A DNA stretch of 64,000 nt from Lentimicrobiaceae bacterium (GCA_031550085.1 JAVBOY010000022.1:62696-126695); one strand, 5' to 3'; shown: positions 14,210 to 49,305, numbered from the stretch's first letter. The notes: generated from the sequence alone by a model not told the origin. Made by a program: numbers and translations.

Positions 14210-14636
14210 TGTTGTTGAATGTTTAGAGTGAAATGTAAACAGTGAGGGGTGGGTTATTTGTTGAACTGTTGAATCGTTGAGTTGTTGAACTGTTTATTTG
14301 TAAGGTAACAAGTTTAGGGTTTACAGTTGACATTTGGTTGCCAAAAGGTTAAATAGGAGCTGTCCGATTTTAATTGAATAAGATAAATTAATCTAATGTT
14401 ATTCTATTTTAATCGCATAGGGGTACTTAAGTGAAACGTGAACAGTGAAGGGTGAGCTGACCTGTTTAATTGTTTATTGGGTGCAGGGTAAAAGGTGAAT
14501 GGAACAAGGTTTGTTATTCGTTTTTTGTTGTTCGCTTACTCGTCACCAAACCTCACTTTCAATTTTCCATTTTCAATTGAAAACTCGTTTACCAGTCTAC
14601 TCGTCAACGCGTTTACTAAACATTTTTAACTTTCAA
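14210..14636 (-). repeat. Intergenic mosaic repeat element, copy A
   Basis: 8-mer (ttgaactg/ttgagttg) and 7-mer (gtgaaNN, tttcaat) arrays, plus blocks shared with copies B and D. Confidence 0.9.
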
Positions 14637-15875
14637 CTATTTAAACTTCGGCAGATAATCCTTCATCATGTCTTTGTGTACCGCAAAATCCATCATTTTC
14701 AGTTTTACATAGTCTTCGTGGAAAAAGTAATACCCAAAGTTTTTATTTTTCTCTTTGCCACCCGTACGGCTTCCGGCTCCCGAATCTTTCACCAGAAACC
14801 AGGTTTTACCGTCCTTTTCCAGATAACCGACCAAATGCATTCCGTGGTCGTCGGTGGTGGTTTCGTTGCTGAAGCGGAATTGGCGTGCTTCGTCGTTAAT
14901 GTATTGCGAAGGAATATCATAGGAAGGAATCACGGCTGCATTGGCTTCGCGGGCTAAAAAGCCCGATTCCGATACATCGCCGCCGATGGAAAGGGTGTAG
15001 CCTTGTTTGATCGCCTTTTTCAGGATTTCCATATAGACATCCAACGGAACGTTGTAATAAGATTTATCGTGCCACCAGTTATCAGGAACTTCGTATTCAC
15101 ATTGTTTCCAGAAAGGCTGTTGCATATAACTCAATACATCGCAATAATCGTCCGGATTAAATTTGAGCACTTGTGTCATGTAATCTTTGGGCGAATACGT
15201 TTTTCCATTTACGGTAACCGTAGTGGGCGGCTCGCCGATATAATAATTGAGCAAGCTCTTTACATTGGCTATCATGGTTTTTTCATCCCAGATGTTGTTT
15301 TTTTTGCAAAAATCCAGGTAGGCCTTAAATTCATTGAATAGTTTTTCGTGGGTGTAAACTTTTTGTCCCGGAAGCAAGCCGGAATAAGCATCGTAGGGCA
15401 GGCAGCCATATTTTTTCATTTCGCGGGTAACGGCATTCCCTTCCGAACCTTCGCCGATGTTGATGTTTCCGCGTGTACGGATCCATTCCATCGTGCGCTC
15501 CAGGTATTCGTTGTAAACCGTAAACATTTCCGACAATTTTACTTTCTGTCCGGTAAGGCGGAAAATTTCACTTTCAACAAATGAGGTGGAAGCAAAGCAC
15601 CAGCAGGTATTGGTATTCCCCTGCGAAATGGGGTCGTTGTGCCAGAATTGGGTGAAATCCGCTTTATCCGCGGGAATGTTGTAGTTCGCCGGATCCGCTT
15701 TGAAGGCTTTGGTTGCTTTGGGCGTTTCTTTTTGCGATTGGAATTCTTCAATCCCTTTTAAAATGGTGTTTTGATAGTAGCCCGGTTCATAGGTTTTAAA
15801 AACAGCTTTGTCTTGTGCCTGAACAAATGGAAAGACGAAAAATGCGGATAAGGATGCAATGAAATATCGTTTCAT
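14637..15875 (-). CDS. C1-family (aminopeptidase C-like) exported cysteine peptidase
   Basis: QGNTNTCWCF (catalytic Cys) and DDHGMH (His) motifs, signal peptide. Confidence 0.88.
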   Translation of the reverse strand: MKRYFIASLSAFFVFPFVQAQDKAVFKTYEPGYYQNTILKGIEEFQSQKETPKATKAFKADPANYNIPADKADFTQFWHNDPISQGNTNTCWCFASTSFVESEIFRLTGQKVKLSEMFTVYNEYLERTMEWIRTRGNINIGEGSEGNAVTREMKKYGCLPYDAYSGLLPGQKVYTHEKLFNEFKAYLDFCKKNNIWDEKTMIANVKSLLNYYIGEPPTTVTVNGKTYSPKDYMTQVLKFNPDDYCDVLSYMQQPFWKQCEYEVPDNWWHDKSYYNVPLDVYMEILKKAIKQGYTLSIGGDVSESGFLAREANAAVIPSYDIPSQYINDEARQFRFSNETTTDDHGMHLVGYLEKDGKTWFLVKDSGAGSRTGGKEKNKNFGYYFFHEDYVKLKMMDFAVHKDMMKDYLPKFK

Positions 15876-15925
15876 AAAAATAAAGTTTTAAGCGCCAAAT
15901 GTAGAAATGTTTTCCTGTTCCGAAC

Positions 15926-15955
15926 AAAAAAAGCGGTGAAAATTTTCACCGCTTT
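15926..15955 (-). terminator. Terminator after pckA
   Basis: aaagcggtgaa/ttcaccgcttt stem plus U tract on the minus strand. Confidence 0.8.
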
Positions 15956-26283: not shown

Positions 26284-26658
26284 TTATTGAAAAAGTTGGA
26301 TTGTAAACCGTCCCAGGAAGGTGCAGGCCAACCCCAGCAAGATGCTGGCCAGAATATAGGCTACAGCCTGCATGTTTTCACCGTTCCGAAACAACAGGAA
26401 GGTTTCGTTCGAAAAAGCCGAAAAGGTGGTGAAACCACCCAGCAGTCCGGTGGCAATAAATAATTTCCATTCCTGCGGGACTTCGCTTTTTTCAACCATC
26501 CCGAAAAATAACCCGATGCAAAAACAACCGATCAGATTGACCGACAGGGTTGCAAAAGGAAAAGAGGTTTCCGTTTTGGTATTTACAAACAACGACAACA
26601 CATAGCGGAAAATTCCCCCGATAAAACTGCCCGTACCGACCAATAATAGCGCTTTCAT
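26284..26658 (-). CDS. crcB: Fluoride efflux channel Fluc
   Basis: GG..RY, TL.VN..GCF and GLLGGFTTFS motifs. Confidence 0.95.
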   Translation of the reverse strand: MKALLLVGTGSFIGGIFRYVLSLFVNTKTETSFPFATLSVNLIGCFCIGLFFGMVEKSEVPQEWKLFIATGLLGGFTTFSAFSNETFLLFRNGENMQAVAYILASILLGLACTFLGRFTIQLFQ

Positions 26659-26662
26659 GGTA

Positions 26663-27218
26663 TTTGAGTTGTTGAACTGTTTATTTGTGAAGTGTGAACC
26701 GTGAAGGGTGAAATGCCTGTTGAATTGTTTAATTGTTTAATTGTTTATTGGGTACAGGGTAAAAGGTGAATGAAACAAGGTTTGTTATTCGTTTTTTTTG
26801 TTCGTTTACTCATCACTCGTCACCCGTTACTCGTCACTAGTTTACTCATTAAATGCTTGCTTTTGTTTATTAGGATAATTAAATCTAATAATATTCTATT
26901 CTAATCGCATATCGTGAAACGTGGACAGTGAAGCGTGAAATGCCTGTTTAATCGTTTAACTGTTTAATTGTTTATTGGGTGCAGGGTAAAAGGTGAATGG
27001 TAAACTTGTTACCCGTAAACCTGTTAACGAATCATTTTCAATTCTCAATTCTCCATTTTCAATTATCTTGTTTACCCGTTACCCGTCACCAAACCTCACT
27101 TTCAACTTTTACTTTTCATTCGTAATTTTTAATTCTTAACTTTCAATTCTCCATTTTCAATTTTCAATTAAAACTCGTTTACTAGTCTACTCCTCAACTA
27201 GTCTACTAAAACAAAGTT
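26663..27218 (-). repeat. Intergenic mosaic repeat element, copy B (longest, internally duplicated)
   Basis: Two passes of gtgaa / tttaattg / gggtRcagggtaaaaggtgaatg, plus tttcaat, cgtYac and tagtctac arrays. Confidence 0.9.
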
Positions 27219-27680
27219 CTATAAATTTTTCAGCAGATTTGCCATTTCGATGGCCGACATGGCGGCGTCAAAACCTTTGTTACCCGCTTTGGTTCCGGCG
27301 CGTTCAATGGCTTGTTCGATGGTGTCGGTGGTCAGCACGCCGAAAATTACCGGAAACTCGGCTTGCAAATTTACAGCCGCAATCCCTTTGGTAACTTCGC
27401 CCGATACCATCTCGAAATGGGGCGTAGCGCCGCGGATTACCGCGCCCAGGCAAATCACTGCGTCATAGTTGCCGCTTTTCGCCATACGTTTGGCCACCAG
27501 CGGAATTTCAAACGAGCCGGGAACCCAGGCCACGGTAATGTTTTTTTCATCGCCGTCGTGGCGGCAAATGGCGTCGATGGCTCCAGACAGCAATTTTGAT
27601 CCGATTAATTCGTTAAAACGGCTTACAATAATTCCAAAACGCAAGCCTTTGGCAATTAGTTTTCCTTCAATTGTTTTCAT
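27219..27680 (-). CDS. ribH: 6,7-dimethyl-8-ribityllumazine synthase
   Basis: [23 protein letters not shown] and GNKG motifs. Confidence 0.97.
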
Positions 27681-27694
27681 AATTTATTTTTTTT

Positions 27695-28026
27695 TGTTGA
27701 GTTGTTGAACTGTTTATTTGTGAACGGTGAAGCGTGAAGTGATTGGATTAAGGTAAATGGTGCAAGGTGAACGGTACAGGGTGAAATGCCTGTTTAATCG
27801 TTTAACTATTTAATTGTTTATTTGTGAAGCGTGAACAGTGAAGGGTGAAATGCCTGTTTAATCGTTTAACTGTTTAATTGTATAAAACCCATTTTCAACT
27901 ATCAATTCTCCATTTTCAATTGAAAAGCCTTCTGCCTTCTGTAATTAAAAAAACTCGTTTACTGGTCTACTCGTTTACTTGTATCTAAAAAACACTTTCA
28001 ATTTTCAACTTTCCACTTTCAATTAA
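27695..28026 (-). repeat. Intergenic mosaic repeat element, copy C
   Basis: gggtgaaatgcctgtttaatcgtttaact occurs twice; also cttctgc, tcgtttac and tttcaa arrays. Confidence 0.9.
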
Positions 28027-29220
28027 CTACATCTGATGCCCCATCTTATTGATTTTGGTTTCCATGTATTTTTTATTGTTGTCGTTTGCTTGAATCACCA
28101 GGGGAATACGTTCTACGATCTCAATGCCGTATCCTTTTAATCCGTTCATTTTTAAGGGATTGTTTGTCATCAGGGTGATTCTTTTTACACCCAGGTTGGC
28201 CAGCATTTCCGAAGCCACGCCGTAATCGCGCAGGTCGGCGGGATAACCCAAGGCCAGGTTGGCCTCCACCGTATCCAAACCTTCTTCCTGCAATTCGTAA
28301 GCTTTCAGTTTATTGAGCAGGCCAATGCCGCGTCCTTCCTGGCGAAGGTACAACAAAATACCACGTCCTTCCTTTTCAATGCGTTGCAGTGATTCATGCA
28401 GTTGTTCGCCGCAATCGCAACGTTTCGAGCCGAAAATATCTCCCGTCAAGCATTCGGAGTGAATGCGCACCAGCACCGGCTCTTCGCCCGAAATATCTCC
28501 TTTGATCAAAGCCACATGATGTTCTTTGGTCACTTCATTCTGGAAGCCGACAATTTTAAAATCGCCGGTAACTGTGGGCATTTGGGCGACCGCTTTGCGC
28601 GACAGGAAATGTTCGTGCTGGCGGCGGTACTTGATTAAGTCGGCAATGGTAATGATTTTTAATTGATGCTTTTGGCAATATTCCATCAATTGCGGCACGC
28701 GCGCCATGCTTCCGTCTTCGTTCATGATTTCGCAAATCACACCGGCCGGTTGCATGCCCGCAAGCCGCGCCAAATCGACGGCAGCCTCGGTATGTCCGGC
28801 ACGGGCCAATACGCCGTAATTTTGAGCAATCAAAGGAAAAATATGCCCCGGACGGGTGAAATCTTCCGGTTTTGAATTCGAATCAACCAATCGCAAAATG
28901 GTTTCGGCACGTTCCTGTGCCGAAATACCTGTCGTTACGTCTTTCCAGTCGACCGAAACGGTAAAAGCCGTTTGTTTGCTATCGGTGTTTTTGGCTACCA
29001 TCGGATTGATCTGCAATTCGTTGAGCCGTTCGGCGGTCATCGGCATACATACCAGGCCACCAGCATGTTTCACCATAAAATTAATGATTTCCGGGCTTGC
29101 TTTTTCGGCAGCCACCACCAAATCCCCTTCGTTTTCGCGGTTTTCATCGTCTACCACCACCAGGGCTTTTCCGATACGAATGTCGTCCAAAGCCTCTTCT
29201 ATTGTATTAAATCTGTACAC
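28027..29220 (-). CDS. ribBA: Bifunctional DHBP synthase / GTP cyclohydrolase II
   Basis: [34 protein letters not shown] and QEGRGIGL motifs. Confidence 0.97.
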
Positions 29221-29237
29221 GTTATAATAAAATGTTT

Positions 29238-29888
29238 TTAAAAAAATCCGTTTTCTTTTAGTTTTTCCATTGTCAATCCTCCGCTCGGCGGAAGATTGCT
29301 TTCCGGTTTCATGAGTTTTTCAATGTATTTGCCGATCAGGTCACATTCGATGTTTACCTTTTCGCGGATGCGTTTGCTGCAAAGCGTAGTCTGGTTTCGT
29401 GTATGCGGGATAACCGATACGGTAAAATCCGTTTCCGATACGGATGCTACTGTCAGGCTGATTCCGTCAAGAGCGACCGACCCTTTTTCGATGATGTACC
29501 TTAAAAGAGAGGACTCGGCTGAAATCGTGATCCAAATGGCATTCTCGTCTTCCCGGAAGCTTTCAATAAGTCCTGTTCCGTCGATATGCCCGCTTACAAA
29601 ATGCCCGCCCAGGCGCGATGTCGGCAGCAAAGCGCGTTCCAGGTTCACACGGTCGTTGCTTTTCAGCAAATACAAATTCGACCGGTTCATGGTTTCAGGC
29701 ATGGCATCGGCAGCAAACGAGGTTCCGGAAATCCCGGTAACTGTCAAACAAACGCCGTTTACCGAGATGCTGTCTCCGATCCGAGTTTGGTTTAAAACCA
29801 GATCTGCGTTGATTTCCAGCACTGCCGAATGTGCTGCTTTGCGAATGGATTTCAGGGTGCCGATTTCTTCAATAATTCCTGTAAACAT
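29238..29888 (-). CDS. ribE: Riboflavin synthase (alpha chain)
   Basis: Canonical MFTGII N-terminus at 29888; [12 protein letters not shown] and GGHFVSGH motifs. Confidence 0.95.
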
Positions 29889-29890
29889 GG

Positions 29891-30994
29891 CTATTTGATT
29901 ACTTTTCCTTTGATTAAAAAATCTTGTCCCAACGTTTGATATGCTACTTGACAAAGTTTGACAGCATTTTCAATGGGGGCAAACCCTTTACCTTCGACCG
30001 GCGTAAGGGCGTCTTTCCCACCGATCAGCAAAGGTGCAATCAGGATTTGAACTTCATCTACAATTCCTGCTTGCAAAGCAGCTTCGTTCAAGGTGCCGCC
30101 GCCTTCGAGCAAAACACTGTCGATTGGCAGTTTGCCCAGTTCCACGACCAATGCATTCAGATCGACTTGTTTATTTGTTTGTGGAAGCACCCACACCAGA
30201 TGTCCCATTTCCGTCAATTGGCGCTGGATTTCTTCCGGGCATTGTTCTGTGGTGGCCAAAATCACCGGATTTTCACCGGGCGTTTGCAGCAATTTGGCAT
30301 TTAATGGGATGCGCCCTTGACTGTCTACCACAATCCGGCGGGGATTGCGCCCGCCTTCGGGCAACCGGCAAGTTAATTCCGGGTTGTCGATCAGTACCGT
30401 ATTTACGCCGACCATAATAGCCGAAAATTCGTTGCGCAGCCGATGTACGTAATTTTGCGATTCCGGGCCGGTAATCGGGCTGGGAAGATTTAAATGCGTT
30501 GAAATCTTTCCGTCCAGCGACATGGCGGTTTTCATCAGCACATACGGCCTTTTTTGAGTCATATATTTGAAAAATACCCGGTTTTGTTCAAGGGCTTCGG
30601 TTTCGCACAAGCCGGTAACTACTTCGATGCCTGCAGCCTGCAATTGTGCGATGCCTTTTCCGTTTACCAACGGATTGGGATCGGTGGCGGCTATAAAAAT
30701 TTTGCTGATTTTATTTTTGATCAGTAAATCGGTGCAGGGTGGCGTTTTGCCAAAGTGGGAGCAAGGTTCGAGGGTTACATAAATGGTGGCGCCTTCGACG
30801 GGTCCGGAGGATTGGGCAATGGCATTGACTTCGGCATGGGGACCGCCGAAATATTCGTGGTATCCTTTCCCGATGATTTTTCCATCGCGTACCAAAACCG
30901 CACCCACCAGCGGATTGGGATTTACTTTCCCTTTTCCGAGGTTGGCCAGTTCAATGGCTTGAAGCATGAAATTGCGGTCGTTGGTGGTTTCCAT
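29891..30994 (-). CDS. ribD: Bifunctional pyrimidine deaminase/reductase
   Basis: PNPLVG, HAE, TLEPCSH.GKTPPC and EGGG motifs. Confidence 0.96.
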   Translation of the reverse strand: METTNDRNFMLQAIELANLGKGKVNPNPLVGAVLVRDGKIIGKGYHEYFGGPHAEVNAIAQSSGPVEGATIYVTLEPCSHFGKTPPCTDLLIKNKISKIFIAATDPNPLVNGKGIAQLQAAGIEVVTGLCETEALEQNRVFFKYMTQKRPYVLMKTAMSLDGKISTHLNLPSPITGPESQNYVHRLRNEFSAIMVGVNTVLIDNPELTCRLPEGGRNPRRIVVDSQGRIPLNAKLLQTPGENPVILATTEQCPEEIQRQLTEMGHLVWVLPQTNKQVDLNALVVELGKLPIDSVLLEGGGTLNEAALQAGIVDEVQILIAPLLIGGKDALTPVEGKGFAPIENAVKLCQVAYQTLGQDFLIKGKVIK

Positions 30995-31030: not shown

Positions 31031-31084
31031 CGCATCATCTCAAAACCGTCACACAAAACAATTGATTTTGCGTGAGTTGAGCAG

Positions 31085-32557: not shown

Positions 32558-32747
32558 CCCTTTGTTCGTCTAAAGCTCGTCTACGGAATTAGCGTCTTTG
32601 TGGTAAAAAAGATCTTTTTGAATAACTTCAACGTATCCTTTACGGCAAGCTATACAGAATGATACATTTTTAGCTTTCCACAGATTTGTTGCACATTGAG
32701 AAAACATGTACCTTTGCCCGATTTTTCACATCCAATTTTCTAATTTT

Positions 32748-34898
32748 ATGAATACCAGATATTTGAACACTTTTATTTGTGTTGTGGTTACTTTAACATC
32801 AAGTTTTGCCCTTATGTCACAAAACAATACCAATCCGTTGTTGGTTGAAAAATTTGGAACCCCTTTTGAAACGGCTCCTTATGACAAGATAAAGCCTGAG
32901 TATTTTTTGCCGGCGGTTCAGGAAGCCATCAAACAAGGCCGTGCCGAAATCGATGCCATTGCCAACAATCCGGCAAAGCCCACCTTTGCCAATACCATTG
33001 AGGCGATGGAAAAATCGGGTCGCTTGCTGAGCCGCACCACATCCGTATTTTTCAATTTAAACAGCGTGGAAACCACGCCAGAACTGCAAAAAGTAGCCCG
33101 CGACATTTCGCCTTTGATGAGCGACTATGGCAATGATATCACGTTAAATGAAAAACTCTTCAAACGTGTAAAAGCGGTTTGGGATAGCCGTAATTCGCTT
33201 AAGCTAACGCCCGAGCAAGCCAAATTGCTGGATGATACATACAAAGGCTTTTCGCGGAATGGCGCCAACCTTTCCGATGCCGATAAGGAAAAACTCCGTG
33301 CCATCGATAAAGAATTGGCGGAAACCGGACTGAAATTCAACGAAAACGTACTGGCGGAAACCAATAATTTTCATTTGGTGGTAGATAATCCGGCTGATCT
33401 GGGAGAAATGCCCGACAACATCAAAGAATCGGCAGCCGCTATTGCAAAATCCAAAGGCCTGGACGGCAAATGGATTTTTACCTTGCAACAACCCAGCTAT
33501 CTTCCGTTTATGACGTATTGCCCCAACCGTGACCTGCGTCAAAAAATGTATATAGCTTATAATTCGCGCTGTGCAAAAGACAATGAATTTGATAATCGTC
33601 CGGTTGCGATCCAAATAGCGATGTTACGTTACCAAAAAGCAGCGCTTTTGGGGTATAAAAACTATGCGGAATACGCATTGGAAAACCGTATGGCAAAAAA
33701 TACGCAAAATGTAAATGATTTCTTGGGTAAATTACTTGAAAAATCAGCGCCTTACGGAAAAAACGATGTGCAGGCAGTTCAGGAATATATGAATGCGAAC
33801 GGGGCAGATTTTCAGTTGCAGCCCTGGGATTGGTCTTTTTATTCCGAAAAGTTGAAAGCCGAAAAATACAGTGTGAATGAAGAGGAACTTCGTCCGTATT
33901 TCGCCTTGGACAACGTGGTGAAGGGAATTTTTACATTGGCTAACAAACTTTATGGAGTTTCGTTTAAAGAACGTCATGATATTGCCGTTTGGCATCAAGA
34001 TGTGAAAGTGTACGAAGTTTTTGACAACGACGGCAAACATTTGGCGCTTTTTTATGCCGATTATTTCCCCCGTGCTGGGAAACGTCCCGGTGCCTGGATG
34101 AATTCGCTTTCGCCCCAGTATATGGAAAATGGGGTAGACGTACGCCCGATTGTCGTGAATGTTTGCAATTTTACCCCTCCTTCGAGCGATAAACCTTCGT
34201 TGTTGAGCCCGATGGAAGTGACTACCGCTTTCCACGAATTTGGACACGCATTGCATGGCATGCTTGCAAAAACAAAATATTCCGAGTTGTCCGGTACATC
34301 CGTGCCGCGCGATTTTGTTGAGTTGCCGTCGCAAGTACTCGAAAATTGGGCATTTGAAAAAGAAATGCTTGCATTGTATGCCAACCATTACGAAACCAAC
34401 GAACCGATCCCGGCTGATTTGGTAGAGAAATTGAATAAAAGCAAACTCTACAATCAGGGCTATGCCACCATGCGCCAGCTTTCATTGGGAATGCTGGATA
34501 TGGCCTGGTATACACAAGATTTTTCAGGGGTAAATACGGTGGAAGAAGCGAGCCAAAAAGTCGGCGGTTTCACTTCTTTTGAGCGCAAAGCAGTTGCCGA
34601 TGCTGCGGTGCTTCCGACAGTTGACGGAACAGCCATCGGCACAACCTTCGGGCATATTTTCGGCGGCGGTTATGCAGCCGGTTATTACAGCTACAAATGG
34701 GCAGAAGTGCTGGATGCTGACGCCTTTTCGCTTTTCAAAGCAAAAGGACTTTTTGATAAAGCTACCGCTCAAAGTTTCCGCGATAACATTTTGAGCAAAG
34801 GCGGTTCCGAGGATCCCATGATTCTTTACAAACGATTCCGCGGGCAAGAGCCCAGTCTGGATGCTCTTTTGAAAAAGAGCGGTTTTGCCGGGAGGTAG
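32748..34898 (+). CDS. dcp: M3-family metallopeptidase (peptidyl-dipeptidase Dcp-like)
   Basis: FHEFGHALH, DFVELPSQ and GYYSYKWAEVLDAD motifs. -7 box at 32709-32716. Confidence 0.88.
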   Translation: MNTRYLNTFICVVVTLTSSFALMSQNNTNPLLVEKFGTPFETAPYDKIKPEYFLPAVQEAIKQGRAEIDAIANNPAKPTFANTIEAMEKSGRLLSRTTSVFFNLNSVETTPELQKVARDISPLMSDYGNDITLNEKLFKRVKAVWDSRNSLKLTPEQAKLLDDTYKGFSRNGANLSDADKEKLRAIDKELAETGLKFNENVLAETNNFHLVVDNPADLGEMPDNIKESAAAIAKSKGLDGKWIFTLQQPSYLPFMTYCPNRDLRQKMYIAYNSRCAKDNEFDNRPVAIQIAMLRYQKAALLGYKNYAEYALENRMAKNTQNVNDFLGKLLEKSAPYGKNDVQAVQEYMNANGADFQLQPWDWSFYSEKLKAEKYSVNEEELRPYFALDNVVKGIFTLANKLYGVSFKERHDIAVWHQDVKVYEVFDNDGKHLALFYADYFPRAGKRPGAWMNSLSPQYMENGVDVRPIVVNVCNFTPPSSDKPSLLSPMEVTTAFHEFGHALHGMLAKTKYSELSGTSVPRDFVELPSQVLENWAFEKEMLALYANHYETNEPIPADLVEKLNKSKLYNQGYATMRQLSLGMLDMAWYTQDFSGVNTVEEASQKVGGFTSFERKAVADAAVLPTVDGTAIGTTFGHIFGGGYAAGYYSYKWAEVLDADAFSLFKAKGLFDKATAQSFRDNILSKGGSEDPMILYKRFRGQEPSLDALLKKSGFAGR

Positions 34899-40829: not shown

Positions 40830-40848
40830 GATCTATTAGATCAAATGT

Positions 40849-40877
40849 AAAAAAGCAGCCTGCGGGCTGCTTTTTTT
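40849..40877. terminator. Bidirectional terminator
   Basis: aaaaaagcagcc-tgcg-ggctgctttttt. Confidence 0.85.
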
Positions 40878-40921
40878 ATGGTATTTCTGTCGGAACTATG
40901 TTACTCCTTCGTAAACTCAGG

Positions 40922-41354
40922 GAGTTGAACTGTTTAATTGTTTATTTGGTGAAATGGGTAAATAGGGGAAAACGGGGAAGTTGTGGAAATGGTTAAAGGT
41001 GCAAGGTCAACGGTAGAGAGTGAAATGGTTGTTGAATTGTTGAACTGTTGAATTGTTTATTTGTAAGGTAACAAGTTTATGGCTTACAGTTAACATTTGG
41101 TTGCCAAAAGGTTAAATAGGAACCTGTCCGATTTTGATTGAATGAGATAAATTAATCTAATATTATTCTATTTTAATCGCATAACGTGAAATGCTTGTTT
41201 AATCGTTTAACTGTTTATTTGTGAACGGTGAAAAGTGTTGTTTTTTGTTGTTCGTTGTTTGCTTGCCTCAACTCCATTTTCAATTTTCCACTCTCAATTT
41301 TCAATCAAAAACCCGTTTACTAGTCTACTTGTTAACTGTTACCTCATAAACCAT
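40922..41354 (-). repeat. Intergenic mosaic repeat element, copy D
   Basis: About 95-bp block shared with F and about 130-bp block shared with A, joined by an 8-mer array. Confidence 0.9.
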
Positions 41355-42656
41355 TTAGACTTCCAGGTATTTGGTATTTATTTTTGATTTATACAGCAAA
41401 AACACCTCGAAACAGCTTCCTTTACCCAGCTCGCTGCTCACCTTTACTTTGCCGCCGTGCGCCTCCACAATGGTTTTTACATAAAACAATCCCAAACCGA
41501 AGCCTTTCACATCATGCACTTTTCCGGTGGGGACCCGGTACAATTTGTTGAAAATAAGCTTTTGATTTTCCCCACTGATGCCGATTCCGCAGTCAGAAAT
41601 GGAAATGGTGATTCCCGCATCGTTAGAAGTCGTTGTTAACGTGATATTGGGGCTTTCCGGAGAATATTTATTGGCATTTTCGAGTAAATTATTAATCACA
41701 TTTTCAATATGGAGTTTGTCGGCAAAAAGAATCGACCGGCTGGCTTTCAGATTAACGCTCAACTGCCCGCAACGCTCCTTCATTGTCAATTGGAAATTTT
41801 CAGCAATGTTCCGGATCATATCATGCAAATCGAATTCCGAAAGCTTAAATTTCAATTTCCCTTTTTCAAAGGCCGAAGTTTGCAATACCTGTTCCACCTG
41901 CGATTTTAAGCGCGCATTTTCATCGTAAATAATCCGCACATACTTTCTCGTTTTTTCTTCCGAAGCCAGTATCGACGAGTTTTGCAACATTTCGCTGGCC
42001 AGGGAAATCGTGGCAATCGGCGTTTTAAACTCGTGGGTCATGTTGTTGATGAAATCGTTTTTCATATCGGCCAGTTTTTTGTGCTGCAAAAAGCGCCAAA
42101 CCGTATAGCCCACGCAAAGCACCAATACGGTAATCAATACGCCGCTCAATATAATACCCGGAAGGATTTTCCGCCATACATACGTATTTTCGTTGGGGAA
42201 ATAGGCGGCCAAAACAAAGGTACAATCATCGCACAACAAACTCAATCCCACAAAGTGGGGCGATTTCATCAACTGGTCTTTTGCCGACATGCTCGAGATT
42301 TCCAGTAAAGTCGAGTCGCTTTTGTTAATGATGCCGTAAACATATTTTTCCGATGAAATGCCGACGGCCGTAAACTCGACACTTACCAACGAGTTGAGTA
42401 CGACTTTGTTAAAGGTGGGAGAGATTTCCAAATTCTGATGCAACGTATCGCTGGTAGGGCCTACTTCCAGGCGGCAGAGGTTGTTTTTTACAAAAATCTG
42501 GTTTACAACACTTTTTAATGCAACGTTTATTTTGTTATTAAAATTATTCTCTTCCAGTTGGTAGACATTCCGGATCCAGTAAAATTGAAGCAAAACAATA
42601 CCCAACAGCGTGATACTCAATATACTGATTATGGTGATAAAAGTCTGTTTTTTCAT
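41355..42656 (-). CDS. Sensor histidine kinase (RprX-like)
   Basis: Two TM helices, THEFKTP H-box, NANKY, D.GIGI and GFGLGL motifs. Confidence 0.92.
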   Translation of the reverse strand: MKKQTFITIISILSITLLGIVLLQFYWIRNVYQLEENNFNNKINVALKSVVNQIFVKNNLCRLEVGPTSDTLHQNLEISPTFNKVVLNSLVSVEFTAVGISSEKYVYGIINKSDSTLLEISSMSAKDQLMKSPHFVGLSLLCDDCTFVLAAYFPNENTYVWRKILPGIILSGVLITVLVLCVGYTVWRFLQHKKLADMKNDFINNMTHEFKTPIATISLASEMLQNSSILASEEKTRKYVRIIYDENARLKSQVEQVLQTSAFEKGKLKFKLSEFDLHDMIRNIAENFQLTMKERCGQLSVNLKASRSILFADKLHIENVINNLLENANKYSPESPNITLTTTSNDAGITISISDCGIGISGENQKLIFNKLYRVPTGKVHDVKGFGLGLFYVKTIVEAHGGKVKVSSELGKGSCFEVFLLYKSKINTKYLEV

Positions 42657-42787
42657 GGTTCAAAATTACTTAGAATCCATTTGCAATCAGTTGCTTAACA
42701 ATATTTTAACAAAATTATGGTTTCATAATAAACCCTTATTCGGCTAAGTGGCAATGATTTTGTACTTTCGCATCCAAAATCTGTTTT

Positions 42788-43195
42788 ATGGAAACCATTC
42801 AAATCGAATATCTTGGCGATTTACGTACAACAGCCGTCCACGTACAATCCGGCAACCAGTTATTAACCGATGCGCCGCTCGACAACAAAGGCAAGGGTGA
42901 AACATTTTCCCCGACCGATTTGTTCGTAACGGCATTGGGAGGGTGTATCATCACAACCATTGGAATTGCGGCACAAGCGCATGGCTTTTCGGTGGACGGA
43001 ACCAAATTGCGGGTAACCAAAATTATGGCGCAAAATCCCCGCCGCATCGGTGAAATCATTGTGGAAATGGATTTTCCGCCGTTTGAATATTCCGACAAAG
43101 AGAAAAAGATTATCCAATATGCCACACATACCTGCCCGGTTAGTGTCAGCTTGCACCCCGACGTAAAGCAAACGATTGCCTTCAATTTTCAATAA
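42788..43195 (+). CDS. OsmC-family protein
   Basis: TDAPLDN.GKG..FSPTDL...C and CPV motifs. Confidence 0.9.
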   Translation: METIQIEYLGDLRTTAVHVQSGNQLLTDAPLDNKGKGETFSPTDLFVTALGGCIITTIGIAAQAHGFSVDGTKLRVTKIMAQNPRRIGEIIVEMDFPPFEYSDKEKKIIQYATHTCPVSVSLHPDVKQTIAFNFQ

Positions 43196-44726
43196 TAAGT
43201 TTTGCAAAATAACCACCGATTTGAATTCCAAGGATAAAAAACTCAGCATTGGCAATGTCTTTACTCCCATCGAATGGGGGCAATTTGCTATTGCCGAATT
43301 TGATCTTTATTCAAAATGGATGAACGGAGCCACGATTTTCGATCCGACCATGGGCGAAGGCAACCTGCTGGAGGCCTTGGTTGAATTCGGGCTGTACGAA
43401 GGGAAACGAATCGAAGAGCTTCCCGTTTCCAACCTGTTTGGAAACGAGCTGAATACCAAATATTACAAACAGGCGCTCAAAAAATTTCGTGAAAAGTACC
43501 GGGTAAACATGTCGAAGAATTTCACAAACGAGGATTTTCTTTTGCTTGAAAACAAGGCTTTCGATTTCGTTTTCGGCAATCCGCCCTGGCAGAATTTTGT
43601 GGACTTGCCCGACGAGTACAAAGAAAAAATCAAACCCTATTTTTTTACGTACGATTTAATTAAAAACAGCCAGGATCTTTTGTTGGGCGGAAGCCGGATC
43701 GACTTTGCCGCCTTGATCATTCAGCGTGCCATCAAAGATTTTCTAAAACCCGGCGGCGAAGCCGTGTTTTTCATGCCGCTTTCGCTTTTGCTTAACGATG
43801 GTGCCAATCAGAATTTCAGGACTTACAGCATCAATCACGTCAACTATTCGATTGAAAAAGTGTATGATTTTGAAACCCTGGATATTTTCGGTAAAATTTC
43901 GACACGGTACGGATTGGCGCATTTTAAAAGGGATCAGAAACCTTCATTTCCCATTGCCTATTTGCGCATGGAAAACGAAAACTGGGTTCAACATGTTGCA
44001 AAGCCCTTATTTGCTTCTACCGACCCGCTCAGCATTATTGGAAATAACGAAGAAGACCTATTGGATGATTTCGAACCCATTGCGATACCCAAAGAATCCT
44101 TGCCACGGCAAGGAATAAACACTTGCGGAGCCAACGAACTGTTTTTCTTCGATACCTGTTGTGAACTGGACGAAGAAACGGTTTTGCTTTCCAATAAAAG
44201 GGTCGACTCGGTTCCGTTACCCAAAGAATTCATATATCCTTTGTTAACGGCCGGAGAATTTGAAACTTCCCCCAATCAGCCGTCAAAATGGGTTTTAATC
44301 CCGTATAACAAAAACGGAAAGCCTTTGGAATTGAGTCAACTGGAGGAATTCCCATCCCTGAAAAAATATTTATTCCGCCACAAAACTGCGTTGAAAAACC
44401 GGAAAGGAACCATGCTGAGCGCCATTTTGAACCGGGGACATTGGTGGGCAATGCTGGGAGTCGGGGAATACAATTTTTTTCCCTACAAAATTGTTTGGGA
44501 AGCCTATGGGAAAACCACGTTTTCTCCCAAGCTTTTTGAAGGAAACTGGCAGGCCAACCAATCTTTGCAGGCATTTATCCCGGTAAGGTTAAAAAAAGAA
44601 GCGTTGCGGATACTGAAAAGATTGCAAGACAAGCGGATTGAAAAATATTTACGGTCCCTCAAAATGGAAGGTACCATGAATTGGGCGCAGCCCGGAAAAA
44701 TAAAGAAATTTGTGGAAATAAATTAA
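43176..44726 (+). CDS. N6-adenine DNA methyltransferase (gamma class, TaqI/Eco57I-like), orphan
   Basis: FTP motif X, DPTMGEGNLL motif I, GNPPW motif IV, C-terminal TRD-like region. Start codon uncertain. Confidence 0.8.
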   Translation: MPSIFNNKFCKITTDLNSKDKKLSIGNVFTPIEWGQFAIAEFDLYSKWMNGATIFDPTMGEGNLLEALVEFGLYEGKRIEELPVSNLFGNELNTKYYKQALKKFREKYRVNMSKNFTNEDFLLLENKAFDFVFGNPPWQNFVDLPDEYKEKIKPYFFTYDLIKNSQDLLLGGSRIDFAALIIQRAIKDFLKPGGEAVFFMPLSLLLNDGANQNFRTYSINHVNYSIEKVYDFETLDIFGKISTRYGLAHFKRDQKPSFPIAYLRMENENWVQHVAKPLFASTDPLSIIGNNEEDLLDDFEPIAIPKESLPRQGINTCGANELFFFDTCCELDEETVLLSNKRVDSVPLPKEFIYPLLTAGEFETSPNQPSKWVLIPYNKNGKPLELSQLEEFPSLKKYLFRHKTALKNRKGTMLSAILNRGHWWAMLGVGEYNFFPYKIVWEAYGKTTFSPKLFEGNWQANQSLQAFIPVRLKKEALRILKRLQDKRIEKYLRSLKMEGTMNWAQPGKIKKFVEIN

Positions 44727-44767
44727 AACAAGAAAAGTTCTCTGATTACATAAAAATTGCTTTCGTT

Positions 44768-45145
44768 ATGACCCTTGGACTAAGCTTGACAAAAGAACTG
44801 ATCGTTACGTATGAAAAAACAGCCTCCGTTTACGGATCGGGGACAGTGGAAGTATTTGCAACCCCTGCCATGATTGCCTTTATGGAGCATACGGCCATGG
44901 AATCCGTGCTTCCGTTTTTGCCGCAAGGAGCCGTCACTGTGGGTACCGAAGTTTGCATCAAACACTTGAAAGCCTCTCCCGTTGGAAGCAAAATTACCTG
45001 CACCGCCACTTTAACCGCTGTCGACAACCGCAAGCTGCAATTTGACGTCAAGGCTTATGATGGTGATGATTTGATCGGCGAAGGCACCCACGAGCGCGTG
45101 ATTGTCGATAAACAACGCTTCTTGGAAAAAATCTATGCTAACTGA
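44768..45145 (+). CDS. Hotdog-fold thioesterase (FlK-like)
   Basis: GSG..EVFATPAMIA.ME, TVG....H and G.HER motifs. Confidence 0.88.
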   Translation: MTLGLSLTKELIVTYEKTASVYGSGTVEVFATPAMIAFMEHTAMESVLPFLPQGAVTVGTEVCIKHLKASPVGSKITCTATLTAVDNRKLQFDVKAYDGDDLIGEGTHERVIVDKQRFLEKIYAN

Positions 45146-45405
45146 GAATTATGAATTAAAAATTACGAATGAGTTTTAGATACAAGTAAACGGGTTTTTA
45201 ATTACAGGAGGCAGAAAGGAAAAAGCAGAAGGCGGAAAGCATTTAAGATACAAAATAAACAATTAAACAGTTAAACGATTAAACAGGCATTTCACTCTTC
45301 ACGCTTCACAAATAAACAATTAAACAGGCATTTCACTCTTCACTGTTCACCCTTCACAAATAAACAGTTCAACAACTCAACAATTCAATAAACATCCATT
45401 TCACA
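45146..45405 (+). repeat. Intergenic mosaic repeat element, copy E
   Basis: Reverse complement of the A-D modules; caaataaacaattaaacaggcatttcactcttcac-type unit repeated. Confidence 0.9.
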
Positions 45406-45435
45406 TTACAAAAATCACATTAAACCCAAAATACA

Positions 45436-47616
45436 TTGACCGAAAATCCGCTATTTGTCGCAAAAACCTATGCCGGGCTTGAAGAAGTTTTGGCCAACGA
45501 ACTCACCCAATTGGGAGCCGGAAACATTGAAGTGTTGACCCGAGCCGTGGAATTTACCGGCGACCAGAAACTTATGTACGCCGCAAACTACAATTGCCGT
45601 ACTGCATTGCGCGTCTTGAAATCCCTGCACCGCTTCGAACTGGATAACGAAGACGATTTGTATTTGAATGTAAACCGTTTTCCCTGGGAACAATACTTTT
45701 CCATCCAACAAACCTTTGCCGTGGATGCCGTGGTGTTTGATTCGGAAATGACCCATTCGCACTTTGTAGCGTTGCGAACCAAAGACGCCATTTGCGACCG
45801 CTTCCGCGAGAGAAATAACGGCCGCCGCCCGTCCGTGGATACCGACAATCCCGATTTCCGGGTTCACATACACATTAGTCAAAATGCCTGCGATATCCAA
45901 CTGGACAGTTCCGGCGCTTCGCTGCACAAACGCGGCTACCGGGTTTCAAATGCCGAAGCTCCTCTGAGCGAAGTTTTGGCCGCCGGCTTGGTTTTATTGA
46001 GCGGTTGGAAGAAAAACTGCCAATTTATCGATCCCATGTGTGGTTCGGGCACTTTGCTGATCGAAGCCGCTTTGATCGCCAACAACATTCCTTGCGGCAT
46101 GTACCGGAAAGATTTCGGTTTTATGTATTGGAACGATTTCGACCGCGACCTGTTTGAAGAAGTCAAAGCCGAAGCGTTTGACCGGCAAACCGAATTCGAG
46201 TACGAAATTGTAGGCTATGATATTTCATCCAGAAACCTTTCGGCTGCCAAGGCCAATGTAAAAGCCGCCAAGTTGCACAAAGACATCCAATTGCAGGTTG
46301 CAGACATCCGCAATCTGACGCTGGATTTCGAGCAACCCGGATACCTTATTACGAATCCGCCTTACGGCGAACGGGTTAAATCCGATGATATCGTTGGATT
46401 GTACCGGGACCTGGGAGATGTGTTAAAGAAAAATTTCCAGAATTATACCGCTTGGGTGATTAGCGCCGATTTTTGGGCCTTGAAAAACATCGGGCTGAAA
46501 TCCTCGCAAACCCTCAATGTATGGAACGGTCCATTGGAATGCAAAGTGTTGAAGTTTGAATTGTATCAGGGATCGAAGAAAGGGAAATACCTGAGCCGGG
46601 AAGAAGAAGGAATGCAGAAAGCAGAAAGCAGAAGGAATAAAATAGAGGAAGCAGGGGAAATGGAGGATGAACACCGAATGCCGAAAGCGAAAAACAAAAG
46701 GGATAAAATAGAGGAAGCAGGGGAAATGGGGGAATCACCTTGGATGCAGAAAGCAGAAGGCAGAACGGAAAGCTTTTCGAAAGTAAAACGCGACCGGGGC
46801 GATCTGGGTAAATCCTTAAGCCGTCAAGAAAAACAAGACCTTCGAAGGAAATTCTTCACGGATGGAGAATCCGAAAATATGGGAGAAAAGGGCGCTTTTT
46901 CAAAAGAAAAAGAATCTTTTGCCGAGCGTAAATCAAGAAGTTTCGACAGGAAAGAGGATAAACCCTTTGGCGAACGTAAACCCCGGAGTTTTTACAACAA
47001 GGAAGACAAACCCTTTCGCGAACGCAAACCACGTAGTTTTGACAACAAGGAAGACAAACCCTTTCGCGAACGCAAACCACGTAGTTTCGACAACAAGGAA
47101 GACAACCCTTTTGGTGAACGAAAATCAAGAAGTTTCGACAGGAAAGAAGATAAACCCTTTGGTGAACGTAGACCCCGTAGTTTCGACAACAAGGAAGCCA
47201 AACCTTTTCGCGAACGCAAACCACGTAGTTTCGACAACAAGGAAGCCAAATCTTTTGGTGAACGTAAACCTCGAAGTTTCGATCGAAAAGAAGACAAACC
47301 TTTTCACGAACGCAAACCCCGGAGTTTTGATAAAAAGGAAGACAAGCCTTTCCGCGAACGTAAACCCCGGAGTTTTGATAAAAAAGAAGACAAACCTTTT
47401 CGCGAACGTAAACCCCGGAGTTTTGACAAAAAAGAAGATAAACCTTTTAAAGAGCGAAAATCAAGCGGTTTCGATAAAAAGGAAGACAAACCCTTGACGG
47501 CAGGGCGCAAATCGTTTATCGAGCGCCGTTCATTCGAACGCCCGCCGCTGGAAGGAGAAAAAGTCTATTTCAACGACAAATCCGAAAAAAAGCAACGCCC
47601 GCGCACAAAAAAATAA
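45436..47616 (+). CDS. THUMP-domain rRNA m2G methyltransferase (RlmL/YpsC-like) with a long repetitive C-terminal tail
   Basis: GLEE.L..EL, DSSG.SLHKRGYR, DPMCGSGT and NPPYGER motifs. The catalytic part ends at about residue 380 of 726. Confidence 0.9.
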   Translation: MTENPLFVAKTYAGLEEVLANELTQLGAGNIEVLTRAVEFTGDQKLMYAANYNCRTALRVLKSLHRFELDNEDDLYLNVNRFPWEQYFSIQQTFAVDAVVFDSEMTHSHFVALRTKDAICDRFRERNNGRRPSVDTDNPDFRVHIHISQNACDIQLDSSGASLHKRGYRVSNAEAPLSEVLAAGLVLLSGWKKNCQFIDPMCGSGTLLIEAALIANNIPCGMYRKDFGFMYWNDFDRDLFEEVKAEAFDRQTEFEYEIVGYDISSRNLSAAKANVKAAKLHKDIQLQVADIRNLTLDFEQPGYLITNPPYGERVKSDDIVGLYRDLGDVLKKNFQNYTAWVISADFWALKNIGLKSSQTLNVWNGPLECKVLKFELYQGSKKGKYLSREEEGMQKAESRRNKIEEAGEMEDEHRMPKAKNKRDKIEEAGEMGESPWMQKAEGRTESFSKVKRDRGDLGKSLSRQEKQDLRRKFFTDGESENMGEKGAFSKEKESFAERKSRSFDRKEDKPFGERKPRSFYNKEDKPFRERKPRSFDNKEDKPFRERKPRSFDNKEDNPFGERKSRSFDRKEDKPFGERRPRSFDNKEAKPFRERKPRSFDNKEAKSFGERKPRSFDRKEDKPFHERKPRSFDKKEDKPFRERKPRSFDKKEDKPFRERKPRSFDKKEDKPFKERKSSGFDKKEDKPLTAGRKSFIERRSFERPPLEGEKVYFNDKSEKKQRPRTKK
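46612..46768 (+). repeat. 66-bp coding repeat (about 2.4 copies) containing gcagaaa heptamers
   Basis: Units start at 46612, 46678 and 46744 (MQKAESRRNKIEEAGEM / MPKAKNKRDKIEEAGEM / MQKAEGR). Confidence 0.8.
46924..47499 (+). repeat. 12 x 48-bp coding tandem repeat (ERKPRSFDxKEDKPFx)
   Basis: Counted 12 units of 16 aa in the translation; variation is largely synonymous or conservative. Confidence 0.95.
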
Positions 47617-47622
47617 TAGAAC

Positions 47623-48945
47623 GTGAGTAAAAAACTATATATCGAAACCTATGGCTGCCAGATGAATTTTTCGGATAGCGAAATCGTAGGTTCTATCCTG
47701 AAAAATCATGATTACGAATCCACGGCTGACATCAAAGCTGCCGACCTGATTCTGGTAAACACCTGTTCCATTCGTGACAATGCCGAACAACGCGTGCGTG
47801 CCCGCCTTTCGGAAATGAAAGCCCTGAAAAAGAAAAATCCCCAGTTGAAAATCGGAATTCTCGGTTGCATGGCCGAACGCTTGAAAGACCAGCTTTTGGA
47901 AGAAGAACGCCACGTCGATTTAATTGTAGGGCCCGACGGCTACCGTTCGTTGCCGCAACTGCTGCAACAAACCGAAACCGGACAAAAAGTCGTAAATGTG
48001 CTGCTTTCGGCCGAAGAAACCTATGCCGATATTTCGCCCGTTCGTTTGGGCGACGACGGCGTGACCGCATTTATCAGCATTATGCGCGGTTGCGAAAATT
48101 TCTGCGCCTACTGCGTTGTACCCTATACCCGGGGAAAAGAACGCAGCCGCAACATGCAAACCATTCTGAATGAAGCGGCCGGCTTATTCGAACAAGGATT
48201 CCGGGAAGTGACCCTGTTGGGACAAAATGTCAATTCCTACCGTTGGGAAGAAAACGGTTCCGTCGTTAAATTTCCCGAATTATTGGAAGCCGTTGCCAGG
48301 GTGAATCCCAAACTTCGGGTCCGTTTTGCCACTTCGCACCCCAAAGATTTGTCCGATGAACTGTTGCATGTGATTGCCAACTATCCCAATGTATGCAAAG
48401 CCGTCCATTTGCCGGTACAAAGCGGCAGTTCGCGCATGCTGAAACAAATGAACCGCTCGTACGACCGTGAATGGTATTTGCAACGCATCAAAGCCATCCA
48501 AACGATTGTACCCGAATGTAGCCTTTCGACAGATGTGATTGCCGGGTTTTGCGGCGAAACCGAAGAAGACCATCAGGAAACCCTGAGTTTGATGCGTCAG
48601 GTGGGCTATGCGGCTGCCTTTATGTTCCAGTATTCCGAACGCTCCAATACCGCTGCCGCAAAAAAATACCGAGACGATGTACCTGAAGAAGTAAAGAGCC
48701 GCCGTTTGACGGAAATCATCCATTTGCAGCAGCTGTTATCGTTAGAAAGCAATCAAAAAGATATTGGAAAAACTTTTGAAGTATTGATCGAAGGCGTATC
48801 GAAACGAAGTCAGGAGCAATTTTTCGGCCGTACCTCGCAAAACAAGGTGGTGGTATTTCCCTGCGGTAATTTTAAAATCGGCGATTACGCCCAAGTCAAA
48901 ATTACCGATTGCTCCGCAGCCACGCTGAAAGGAGAGCTTGTTTAA
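47623..48945 (+). CDS. miaB: tRNA-2-methylthio-N6-dimethylallyladenosine synthase
   Basis: TYGCQMN, NTCSIR, GCMA, radical-SAM CxxxCxxC and C-terminal TRAM domain. Confidence 0.96.
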   Translation: MSKKLYIETYGCQMNFSDSEIVGSILKNHDYESTADIKAADLILVNTCSIRDNAEQRVRARLSEMKALKKKNPQLKIGILGCMAERLKDQLLEEERHVDLIVGPDGYRSLPQLLQQTETGQKVVNVLLSAEETYADISPVRLGDDGVTAFISIMRGCENFCAYCVVPYTRGKERSRNMQTILNEAAGLFEQGFREVTLLGQNVNSYRWEENGSVVKFPELLEAVARVNPKLRVRFATSHPKDLSDELLHVIANYPNVCKAVHLPVQSGSSRMLKQMNRSYDREWYLQRIKAIQTIVPECSLSTDVIAGFCGETEEDHQETLSLMRQVGYAAAFMFQYSERSNTAAAKKYRDDVPEEVKSRRLTEIIHLQQLLSLESNQKDIGKTFEVLIEGVSKRSQEQFFGRTSQNKVVVFPCGNFKIGDYAQVKITDCSAATLKGELV

Positions 48946-49305
48946 TTGAAAGTTGAGAATGGAAAATTGAAGTTGATTCGTTAACAGGTTTACGGGTAAT
49001 AAGTTTACCATTCACCTTTTACTCTCCTGTACCAATAAACAATTCAACAACTCAACGATTCAACAGTTCAACCGACTACTCACCGTTCACAAATAAATGA
49101 TTAAACAGGCATTTTACTTTATGCGATTAAAACAGAATAATATTAGATTTAATTATCGTAGTCAAAAAAAATAAGGTTACTCCTATTTCACCCTCTACCG
49201 TTGACCTTGCACCTTTAACCATTTCCACAACTTCCCCGTTTTCCCTATTTACCCATTTCACCAAATAAACAATTAAACGATTAAACAGACATTTCACCTT
49301 TCACT
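48946..49305 (+). repeat. Intergenic mosaic repeat element, copy F
   Basis: Blocks shared (reverse complement) with B (49 bp) and D (about 95 bp). Confidence 0.9.

Follow-up and report, generated by a model that had tools for sequence, protein, structure and literature searches.

How do spacers lying between different genes of one bacterium come to share near-identical blocks of sequence in different combinations? This question is raised by seven intergenic spacers, A to G, in a 64,000-nucleotide (nt) stretch of DNA, hereafter the window (JAVBOY010000022.1:62696-126695, i.e., positions 62696-126695 of contig C18 in genome G000), taken from the 3.19 Mb assembly of an uncultured Bacteroidales filed as Lentimicrobiaceae bacterium (GCA_031550085.1; 60 contigs, 97.7% complete). 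A first-pass annotation of this DNA had read the spacers as seven local copies whose modules were shuffled, or converted, with short tandem arrays serving as crossover points. Here, we found that A-G are the intergenic DNA itself, not elements sitting within it, and that they are a sample of a genome-wide modular non-coding repeat family reshuffled over well over a hundred sites. The account that we favour as probable is that A-G are whole spacers of a lineage-restricted family which evolves in concert through the exchange of short tracts, an exchange not focused on the arrays. Positions without a contig name are counted from the first nucleotide of the window.

Genes were called with a crude longest-open-reading-frame (ORF) rule, which yielded 2527 ORFs; intergenic regions (IGRs) of 30 nt or more numbered 1771. 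When A-G were compared with the genome by BLAST, 4064 high-scoring segment pairs were obtained, with 30-260 matches per 20-nt bin across most of each copy. At least 40 nt resembling A-G were present in 167 of the 1771 IGRs, covering 56,467 bases, 91% of which lay outside the crude ORFs. An all-versus-all comparison showed that 385 IGRs match another IGR and that 255 match five or more, some other repeat families being included in these counts. Arrays of period 7 or 8, detected with a lag-7/8 mask, made up 21.9% of the 255 repeat IGRs, compared with 0.8% of repeat-free IGRs and 0.18% of coding DNA. The seven local copies of the first-pass annotation were thus too narrow a scope, the family being genome-wide. 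Annotation pipelines would show such spacers as long and unannotated.

The arrays are built from several unit types of 7-8 nt, namely TGTTKAAY (T), GTGAANNG (G), GGGGAANN, TTTTCAA (F), CGTTTAC/CGTCACC (C) and CTTTCTGC. Besides the arrays there are a few unique cores, chiefly the AT-rich M4, of 30-40 nt, in which about 30 of roughly 40 positions are at least 80% conserved and whose 30-nt core occurs 111 times in the genome at up to 6 substitutions. M4 usually has a GGGGAANN array on one side, and GTGAANNG followed by TGTTKAAY arrays on the other. On the GT-rich strand the typical order is T and G arrays at one end, M4 in the middle, and F and C arrays at the other end; the median distance between T and G arrays and the start codon that they face is about 105 nt (104 nt for T), and F and C arrays are 50-75 nt away from the stop codon. 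B, C, E, F and G take up their whole spacer and A and D most of it. Their positions, together with those of the M4 cores located by sequence, are as follows (the strand is that of the GT-rich form; the gene beside A was assigned from ORFs and Pfam).

14200..14636, + strand: copy A, the repeat-filled part of its IGR, upstream of the stop of a peptidase-C1-like gene (14637-15875, -)
14390..14419, + strand: M4 core in A, 30 nt, of the AATCTAAT...AATCGCATA type
26659..27218, + strand: copy B, the whole IGR from crcB (26284-26658, -) to ribH (27219-27680, -)
26882..26911, + strand: M4 core in B
27681..28026, + strand: copy C, the whole IGR from ribH to ribBA (28027-29220, -), within the rib cluster behind an FMN riboswitch
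40900..41354, + strand: copy D, the repeat-filled part of a convergent IGR, ending at the stop of a histidine-kinase gene (41355-42656, -)
41154..41183, + strand: M4 core in D
45146..45435, - strand: copy E, the IGR from a thioesterase gene (44681-45145, +) to an rlmL-like gene (45436-47616, +)
48946..49323, - strand: copy F, the IGR from a miaB-like gene (47623-48945, +) to the next gene (49324-50196, +)
49120..49149, - strand: M4 core in F
63627..63886, - strand: copy G, the IGR from the gene at 63111-63626 (+) to a gene starting at 63887 (+)

The 20-nt bins of copy A had 4-211 BLAST matches in the genome. Copy B contains T, G, C and F arrays, two M3 units and one M4, copy D is preceded by a hairpin-plus-T stretch (40848-40878), and copy E carries a 41-nt higher-order tandem repeat (45272-45350). 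TRF reported arrays of period 7, 8, 14 and 16 in B, D and E. The best partner of copy G lies just outside the window (C18:129729-129879, 96.7% over 151 nt).

The six block similarities described in the first-pass annotation were all reproduced, with the same coordinates and the same numbers of differences. A (14291-14419) aligned to D (41054-41183) with 122 identities, 7 mismatches and 1 gap, and to B (14463-14541 against 26734-26811) with 75 identities, 3 mismatches and 1 gap. The reverse complement of F matched D (40932-41026 against 49185-49278) with 93 identities, 1 mismatch and 1 gap, and B (26986-27034 against 48974-49022) at 48 of 49 positions. C (27927-27989) and the reverse complement of E (45174-45219) shared 41 identities with 19 gap columns, including one 18-nt gap, and E (45210-45230) was identical to G (63748-63768) over 21 of 21 nt. 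Such matches are far above chance, an array 23-mer being expected 0.00 times in shuffles of the window. The patchwork that had been described, in which each copy has different nearest relatives, is real, but most of these relatives lie elsewhere in the genome, outside A-G. The block shared by A and D also holds a sigma-70-like TTGACA-N17-TAAATA arrangement (14321-14357 and 41085-41121; TTAACA in D), with about 6-10 BLAST matches genome-wide and of doubtful meaning in Bacteroidales.

Mosaicism was then quantified over all pairs of IGRs sharing a block with at least 25 non-array bases. Among 2881 such pairs, 2654 had a single block in common, and the 227 multi-block pairs comprised 159 collinear ones, 58 with changed block order and 10 with blocks on mixed strands. 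Around the 111 M4 cores, the pairwise similarity of the left 60 nt was unrelated to that of the right 60 nt (Spearman 0.009, reached by 91 of 200 permutations), adjacent 60-nt windows on one side of M4 were weakly correlated (0.27 and 0.16), and the best left partner (at least 85% identity) was among the top three on the right in 5 of 31 M4 copies. Linkage is therefore gone within about 60-120 nt, which excludes that the copies are collinear deletion derivatives of one master element; with the prevalence of single-block pairs, this bears out what had been claimed. The first-pass annotation spoke against simple copy-paste, but whole-spacer copying also occurs. B and a paralogue lying between different genes (C18:56266-56872) are collinear over 575 alignment columns with 85% identity (match C18:56288-56846). 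This paralogue, B2, lies outside the window. In the B/B2 pair, stretches of 99-100% identity alternate with indels of 7-nt units and with two patches, each of about 30-60 nt, that have been replaced.

Several block ends in the window adjoin arrays, and both patches replaced between B and B2 fall in array regions (G/T arrays near 26915-26975 and the F array near 27100-27140), as could be expected if short tandem arrays were the crossover points for module swapping. Yet only 10 of the 24 block ends of the first-pass alignments lay within 4 nt of a period-7/8 array, compared with 43% of all positions in A-G, so that similarity does not switch preferentially there. In a genome-wide breakpoint enrichment test with 645 high-identity blocks, the share of ends at arrays was 0.265 compared with 0.269 (sd 0.010) when blocks were slid randomly; for the 202 blocks of at least 95% identity it was 0.173 compared with 0.222 under the same null. 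Four mask definitions combined with two tolerances pointed in the same direction, block ends not being enriched at arrays. Arrays were also no more divergent than unique sequence in 40 long collinear pairs (0.081 versus 0.089 mismatches and 0.076 versus 0.073 gap columns per nt). A focus of the exchange on arrays is not supported, and we regard crossover at arrays as decidedly unlikely. Of the module shuffling proposed earlier, the mosaics are strongly supported and conversion fits them; the role given to the arrays is the part that did not stand.

Exchange of short tracts should leave a trace of distance if nearby loci are the more frequent partners. Of the block pairs with 97% identity or more, 4 of 21 had both loci on one contig, as had 14 of 102 pairs of 94-97% identity; 3.5% was expected, and the share fell to about 4% in pairs under 85% identity. 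When the A-G-like family was taken alone, the same-contig counts were 10 of 106 (9.4%) and 20 of 264, compared with 3.6% expected. Over these two analyses, blocks with at least 94% identity shared a contig 2.6 to 4 times as often as expected. This gradient fits recent exchange or copying that is commoner between nearby loci.

In the mechanism that we propose, gene conversion or template switching via shared homology would copy short tracts, mostly of about 40-130 nt, from one dispersed member to another in a non-reciprocal way, more often between nearby loci. Array units would be gained and lost by slippage, and an entire spacer would occasionally be copied. Such tract exchange would break the linkage of neighbouring modules within about 60-120 nt and give each module a different nearest relative. 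The polarity of the spacers, described below, might be kept by selection on the transcribed RNA, favouring an unstructured, G-poor stretch before starts in a bacterium whose ribosomes ignore Shine-Dalgarno sequences. Translation in Bacteroidia is described as shaped by mRNA structure and unresponsive to Shine-Dalgarno sequences (PMC6847099, PMC9976891). If the exchange is gene conversion, the family would offer a natural system in which to study the tract length and distance dependence of ectopic conversion in uncultured gut Bacteroidales.

The high copy number, the strictly intergenic location and the restriction to one lineage could also be produced by transposition, with MITE-like (miniature inverted-repeat transposable element) non-autonomous modules or very small dispersed repeats nested by insertion. 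A 560-nt composite at two unrelated loci, the presence of Y1 transposase genes and the finding of these repeats at 14 of 120 contig ends (3.5% of random windows), as expected of young repeats, would agree with it. So would one difference between B and B2, an unrelated segment of about 33 nt that is found in another spacer at C4:143111; however, in this second copy the segment is flanked by identical array units, and it thus travelled in a larger block. Inverted pairs of at least 40 nt numbered 26, and of the 25 listed none had both arms in one copy. Neither terminal inverted repeats nor target duplications were seen at block or spacer ends, element ends being undefinable and the systematic search having covered inverted repeats of at least 40 nt. 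Linkage decays smoothly, not at fixed element ends. A reverse transcriptase as the source of the arrays was rejected, as the 97.7% complete genome gave no RVT_1 match. Four of five full-length Y1_Tnp genes were inspected: three stand beside different, hairpin-type REP (repetitive extragenic palindromic) repeats, and the fourth, on C4, has a spacer of the A-G family upstream, with REP-like hairpins inside that spacer. Since RVT_1 gave no match, Y1 genes are tied to other repeats, and neither inverted pairs within a copy nor target duplications were noticed, homology-driven exchange plus slippage is favoured; we infer homologous, RecA-type conversion and consider transposition unlikely. Regardless of their origin, the repeats at contig ends mean in practice that short-read assemblies are fragmented by this family.

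The flanks of the RAYT-like (REP-associated tyrosine transposase) Y1 genes at C60:21532-22640, C51:2553-3700 and C41:54380-55210 carry classical hairpin REPs, a separate repeat system, and about six tandem 51-nt units adjoin the Y1 gene of C60.

A short-read, 60-contig metagenome-assembled genome (MAG) with repeats enriched at its contig ends invites the suspicion that the mosaics are assembly chimeras. The window stretch is present in runs X1 (DNA) and X2 (RNA library), both records of which are labelled invertebrate gut metagenome. The Logan contigs of both runs, independent k=31 contigs in the case of X1, stop inside every repeat region, and depth in repeat bins is summed over many loci. 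The unique flanks, in turn, match independent contigs with 0 differences up to the repeats (e.g., 27142-27723, 27998-34715 and 41188-45240), and copies sit between plausibly adjacent genes, such as ribBA and ribH behind the riboswitch. Shared high-identity blocks reach at most about 130 nt, which we assume to be shorter than typical reads, and polarity and module grammar hold over hundreds of loci. Chimeric assembly is, on these grounds, a very improbable source of the mosaics.

The family is lineage-restricted. One 18-mer (up to 1 mismatch) occurred 94 times in this genome, gave single matches in 2 of 40 relatives and was absent from the other 38, and the M4 30-mer had 0 matches in the metagenome contigs scanned. 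With B as query, short F-array matches alone were obtained, in 8 of 44 same-genus genomes. With up to 2 mismatches allowed, this genome contains the T-array 23-mer 137 times; among 400 other Bacteroidales genomes it was detected in 18, of which three carry 5-17 copies. A and F share the exact 23-nt T array with 10 unrelated metagenome contigs (L127-L136; GC 38-63%); in 5 of the 10 the GT-rich form immediately follows a stop codon, and the CA-rich form precedes a start in one by ORF call and in a second by eye. In contig L133, the T array is followed by its own reverse-complement form. When filled and empty sites were compared, the neighbours of miaB proved non-syntenic in 9 same-genus loci; the IGRs after miaB there were 103-617 nt long, with no arrays seen by eye. 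The relatives of this miaB were nearly all from Bacteroidales or Bacteroidota MAGs, which, together with a type-IX secretion sorting domain, assigns the genome to an uncultured Bacteroidales.

Seven of eight sampled same-genus genomes (G017, G005, G057, G015, G014, G007 and G012, with none in G013) have their own intergenic 7-8-nt arrays of unrelated units, such as AATTGAAA, CCATTAA, CTCTCAAA and GATGTCG, which amount to 2-14% of the sampled IGR bases.

The spacers have a marked polarity with respect to genes. Among 124 co-directional IGRs whose orientation was clear, the GT-rich form ran antisense to the genes in 101, two more IGRs being mixed; its antisense share per module was 72-89%, and 176 T arrays were antisense to both flanking genes compared with 41 in sense. 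Minority-orientation T, G, F and C arrays lie at the opposite end of the spacer and are therefore whole-element inversions. Orientation set by replication was rejected, since element orientation tracks the gene strand in both GC-skew classes; GC skew is a weak proxy for replication here because in this assembly the gene strand is itself unrelated to skew.

Base composition follows a related rule. On the sense strand of co-directional IGRs, arrays nearer the stop had more G than C in 178 cases and the reverse in 47, and arrays nearer the start had more C than G in 197 cases and the reverse in 32. The same was observed in 400 kb from the 8 sampled same-genus genomes, with unrelated units (19 versus 3 on the stop side and 14 versus 7 on the start side). 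On the top strand, G exceeded C in arrays of the left half of the spacer and C exceeded G in those of the right half, in all four gene arrangements (++, --, +- and -+; odds ratios 28, 18, 6.5 and 6.4). Ordinary IGRs showed no such asymmetry, apart from G being slightly depleted over the final 20 nt ahead of starts. This dyad-symmetric skew may reflect either selection at the RNA level or the mode of array growth.

At the RNA level, predicted folding was compared with that of mononucleotide shuffles for 40 repeat IGRs. The median z was 0.06 for repeat IGRs and -1.47 for ordinary IGRs, and pairing of the G-rich with the C-rich half of a spacer was discarded, since shuffled sequences fold as well as repeat IGRs do. 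A structured RNA at M4 was likewise discarded, RNAalifold giving no consensus pairs on either strand of 111 aligned copies. The Bacteroidetes promoter consensus is TAnnTTTG. This motif was present in sense in 26% of repeat IGRs compared with 51% of ordinary ones, and hairpin-plus-T sites were present in 2% compared with 10%. M4 was rejected as a Bacteroidetes promoter, no TAnnTTTG being seen in it by eye and the motif being depleted in repeat IGRs. Low structure and few promoter-like motifs and hairpin-plus-T sites fit spacers within transcription units, like C. One contig of the RNA library spans 27991-31201, a finding compatible with DNA carry-over and which does not imply a single transcript.

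In a different explanation, the modules are selected functional signals, the spacers act as operon punctuation on the RNA, and likeness is kept by selection plus exchange. Its proposed parts would be a C-poor tail after the stop, an AU-rich M4 as a candidate protein-binding or processing site, and a G-poor unstructured leader loading Shine-Dalgarno-blind ribosomes or Rho. MacGregor (2015; PMC4679880) proposed that oriented heptamer repeats lying immediately ahead of start codons act in translation, also in some Bacteroidetes. The G/C polarity and its recurrence in 8 relatives with unrelated units agree with such punctuation, as do its absence from ordinary IGRs, the conservation of M4 while its flanks recombine freely, and the placement of the T-array 23-mer after stop codons and before starts in metagenome contigs. 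However, the G/C rule is obeyed by either strand in each of the four gene arrangements, and thus it may be a property of the duplex or an effect of array growth rather than of one transcript. Moreover, of 210 T arrays only 27 have their end no farther than 15 nt from the start codon faced, as placed by the crude ORF calls, and M4 has neither a consensus RNA fold nor, by eye, the promoter motif. We see functional signals as possible, although on balance doubtful.

A broader version, which we put forward as speculative and rather unlikely, is a lineage-wide rule by which intergenic 7-8-nt arrays would be G-rich and C-poor on the strand that leaves a gene boundary 5'-to-3' and C-rich and G-poor on the strand that approaches one. 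Modular spacers with an AU-rich core would then be selected operon punctuation for Shine-Dalgarno-blind ribosomes, and possibly for Rho, kept uniform over more than 100 loci by concerted evolution, and TGTTGAAY would be a cross-phylum motif like TAACTGA. If this rule were true, every transcript would exit its stop via a C-poor tail and meet the next start via a G-poor unstructured leader. Should the G-then-C rule result from RNA-level selection, it would bear on translation start in Bacteroidia and on transcription end within operons that have no Shine-Dalgarno sites.

Concerted evolution of whole spacers through short-tract exchange is still the account that we prefer, and several observations weigh against it. 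The strong G-then-C rule is not predicted by conversion alone. The occurrence of the T array in 10 metagenome contigs, and in 5-17 copies in three other Bacteroidales genomes, makes a purely local neutral origin insufficient. The proximity effect is modest once limited to the A-G-like family (10 of 106 compared with 3.6%), and p-values overstate significance because pairs are not independent. Given the canonical order of modules and the 159 collinear pairs among 227, differential decay of a composite could account for some of the pattern. The order of modules within each copy depends on one short-read assembly, since independent contigs break in the repeats, and start and stop distances and gene orientations are noisy because of the crude ORF calling. 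Finally, gene conversion is read from the patterns of a single genome and would be one interpretation of them.

The dispersed intergenic repeats usually encountered are either transposase-moved hairpin REPs or MITEs, or plain microsatellite-like arrays, and the present family represents a third style, in which complete spacers are put together from a common set of arrays and cores, neighbouring modules lose their linkage within about 100 nt, and a strict strand-composition rule extends to relatives with unrelated units. Among known systems, bacterial interspersed mosaic elements (BIMEs) are palindromic REP hairpins of alternating orientation linked to RAYT transposases, BOX modules have a fixed order and stable RNA structures, and cyanobacterial STRR (short tandemly repeated repetitive) heptamers are tandem repeats in the heptamer range. 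Literature searches, with subscription journals outside their coverage, returned no description of these sequences or of such a family in Bacteroidales, and the composition rule is not described in the papers searchable here.

The closest parallel among heptamers is TAACTGA, whose direct repeats are known from marine Beggiatoaceae, cyanobacteria and a few Bacteroidetes (MacGregor, 2015; PMC4679880). Both systems consist of short tandem direct units of 7-8 nt that are intergenic, gene-oriented, often near starts and patchy across phyla; that paper also mentions "larger assemblages of heptamer repeats" in nearly identical IGRs of an Elizabethkingia, and contigs ending in such repeats. By contrast, the present family has many unit types plus unique cores, spacers of 300-560 nt that fill the IGRs, the G/C rule on both strands, and mosaicism. 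The TAACTGA unit itself is not matched, the octamers here being such as TGTTTAAT, TGTTGAAC and CGTTTAAC, with a TAACTGT substring as the sole resemblance. TAACTGA repeats are described as forward and within a few nt upstream of the start; for this trait the T arrays give a mixed picture, with a biased orientation and the median distance of 104 nt given above. Long simple sequence repeats (LSSRs) with units of 5-11 nt, for which polymerase slippage was proposed (Mrazek et al., 2007, as summarised in PMC4679880), and STRRs resemble our arrays in their head-to-tail 7-8-nt units concentrated in the non-coding DNA of some lineages; however, the sources describe them as simple arrays, without a dispersed family sharing cores and module order. 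The present family goes beyond simple arrays in its shared cores, grammar, composition rule and measured loss of linkage.

Like BIMEs (PMC2817692), the family forms high-copy intergenic mosaics of a few motifs in varied combinations, but its spacers have no excess folding and no inverted units, and the Y1 genes stand with other repeats. Like pneumococcal BOX (boxA-boxB(n)-boxC; PMC3049150), it is modular, fixed modules enclosing internal tandem units of variable number. Its module order is typical rather than strict, 159 of the 227 multi-block pairs being collinear and 58 rearranged, and, unlike that of BOX, its RNA is predicted to lack structure. In Porphyromonas gingivalis, the BrickBuilt MITE (PMC4596501) shares with it the order Bacteroidales, an exclusively intergenic location, species specificity, and a tandem array between a leader and a tail. 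BrickBuilt has an internal 23-nt minisatellite of one unit type, small inverted-repeat ends and 19 copies, and promoter activity was reported for it, whereas here no terminal inverted repeats were found, copies run into the hundreds, unit types are many and promoter-like motifs are depleted. By the hairpin and RAYT criteria and, as far as inverted repeats were searched, by that of inverted repeats, the present family falls outside the transposon-linked families.

Other features of the window and the genome were recorded along the way. Rfam 15 gave two matches in the window at gathering score, FMN at 31082-31218 (-) and DUF805b at 61355-61386 (+), and no match inside A-G at gathering thresholds. 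The rib cluster behind the FMN riboswitch consists of ORFs 29891-30994 and 29238-29954, followed by ribBA, copy C and ribH. A ribBA query had no match in 15 of 15 same-genus genomes (G001-G015) and matched 8 of 10 genomes from other families of the order with 54-59% identity; the cluster is possibly unusual for the genus, or the genus label is loose. The rlmL-like ORF (45436-47616) has a C-terminal extension with 12 tandem 48-nt units (46817-47584, +; higher order 144 nt) and a 66-nt tandem (46599-46755, +), which looks like a coding repeat; its Fibrinogen_BP match was weak and under the cut-off. An ORF of 1497 amino acids (7364-11857) holds four 468-nt repeats of 65-72% identity (9057-10660, -). 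The genome also has array-free intergenic repeat families of 180-330 nt with 82-96% identity, found at C3:26789-32419, C16:378-1011, C58:8844-9323 and C28:83656-84495.

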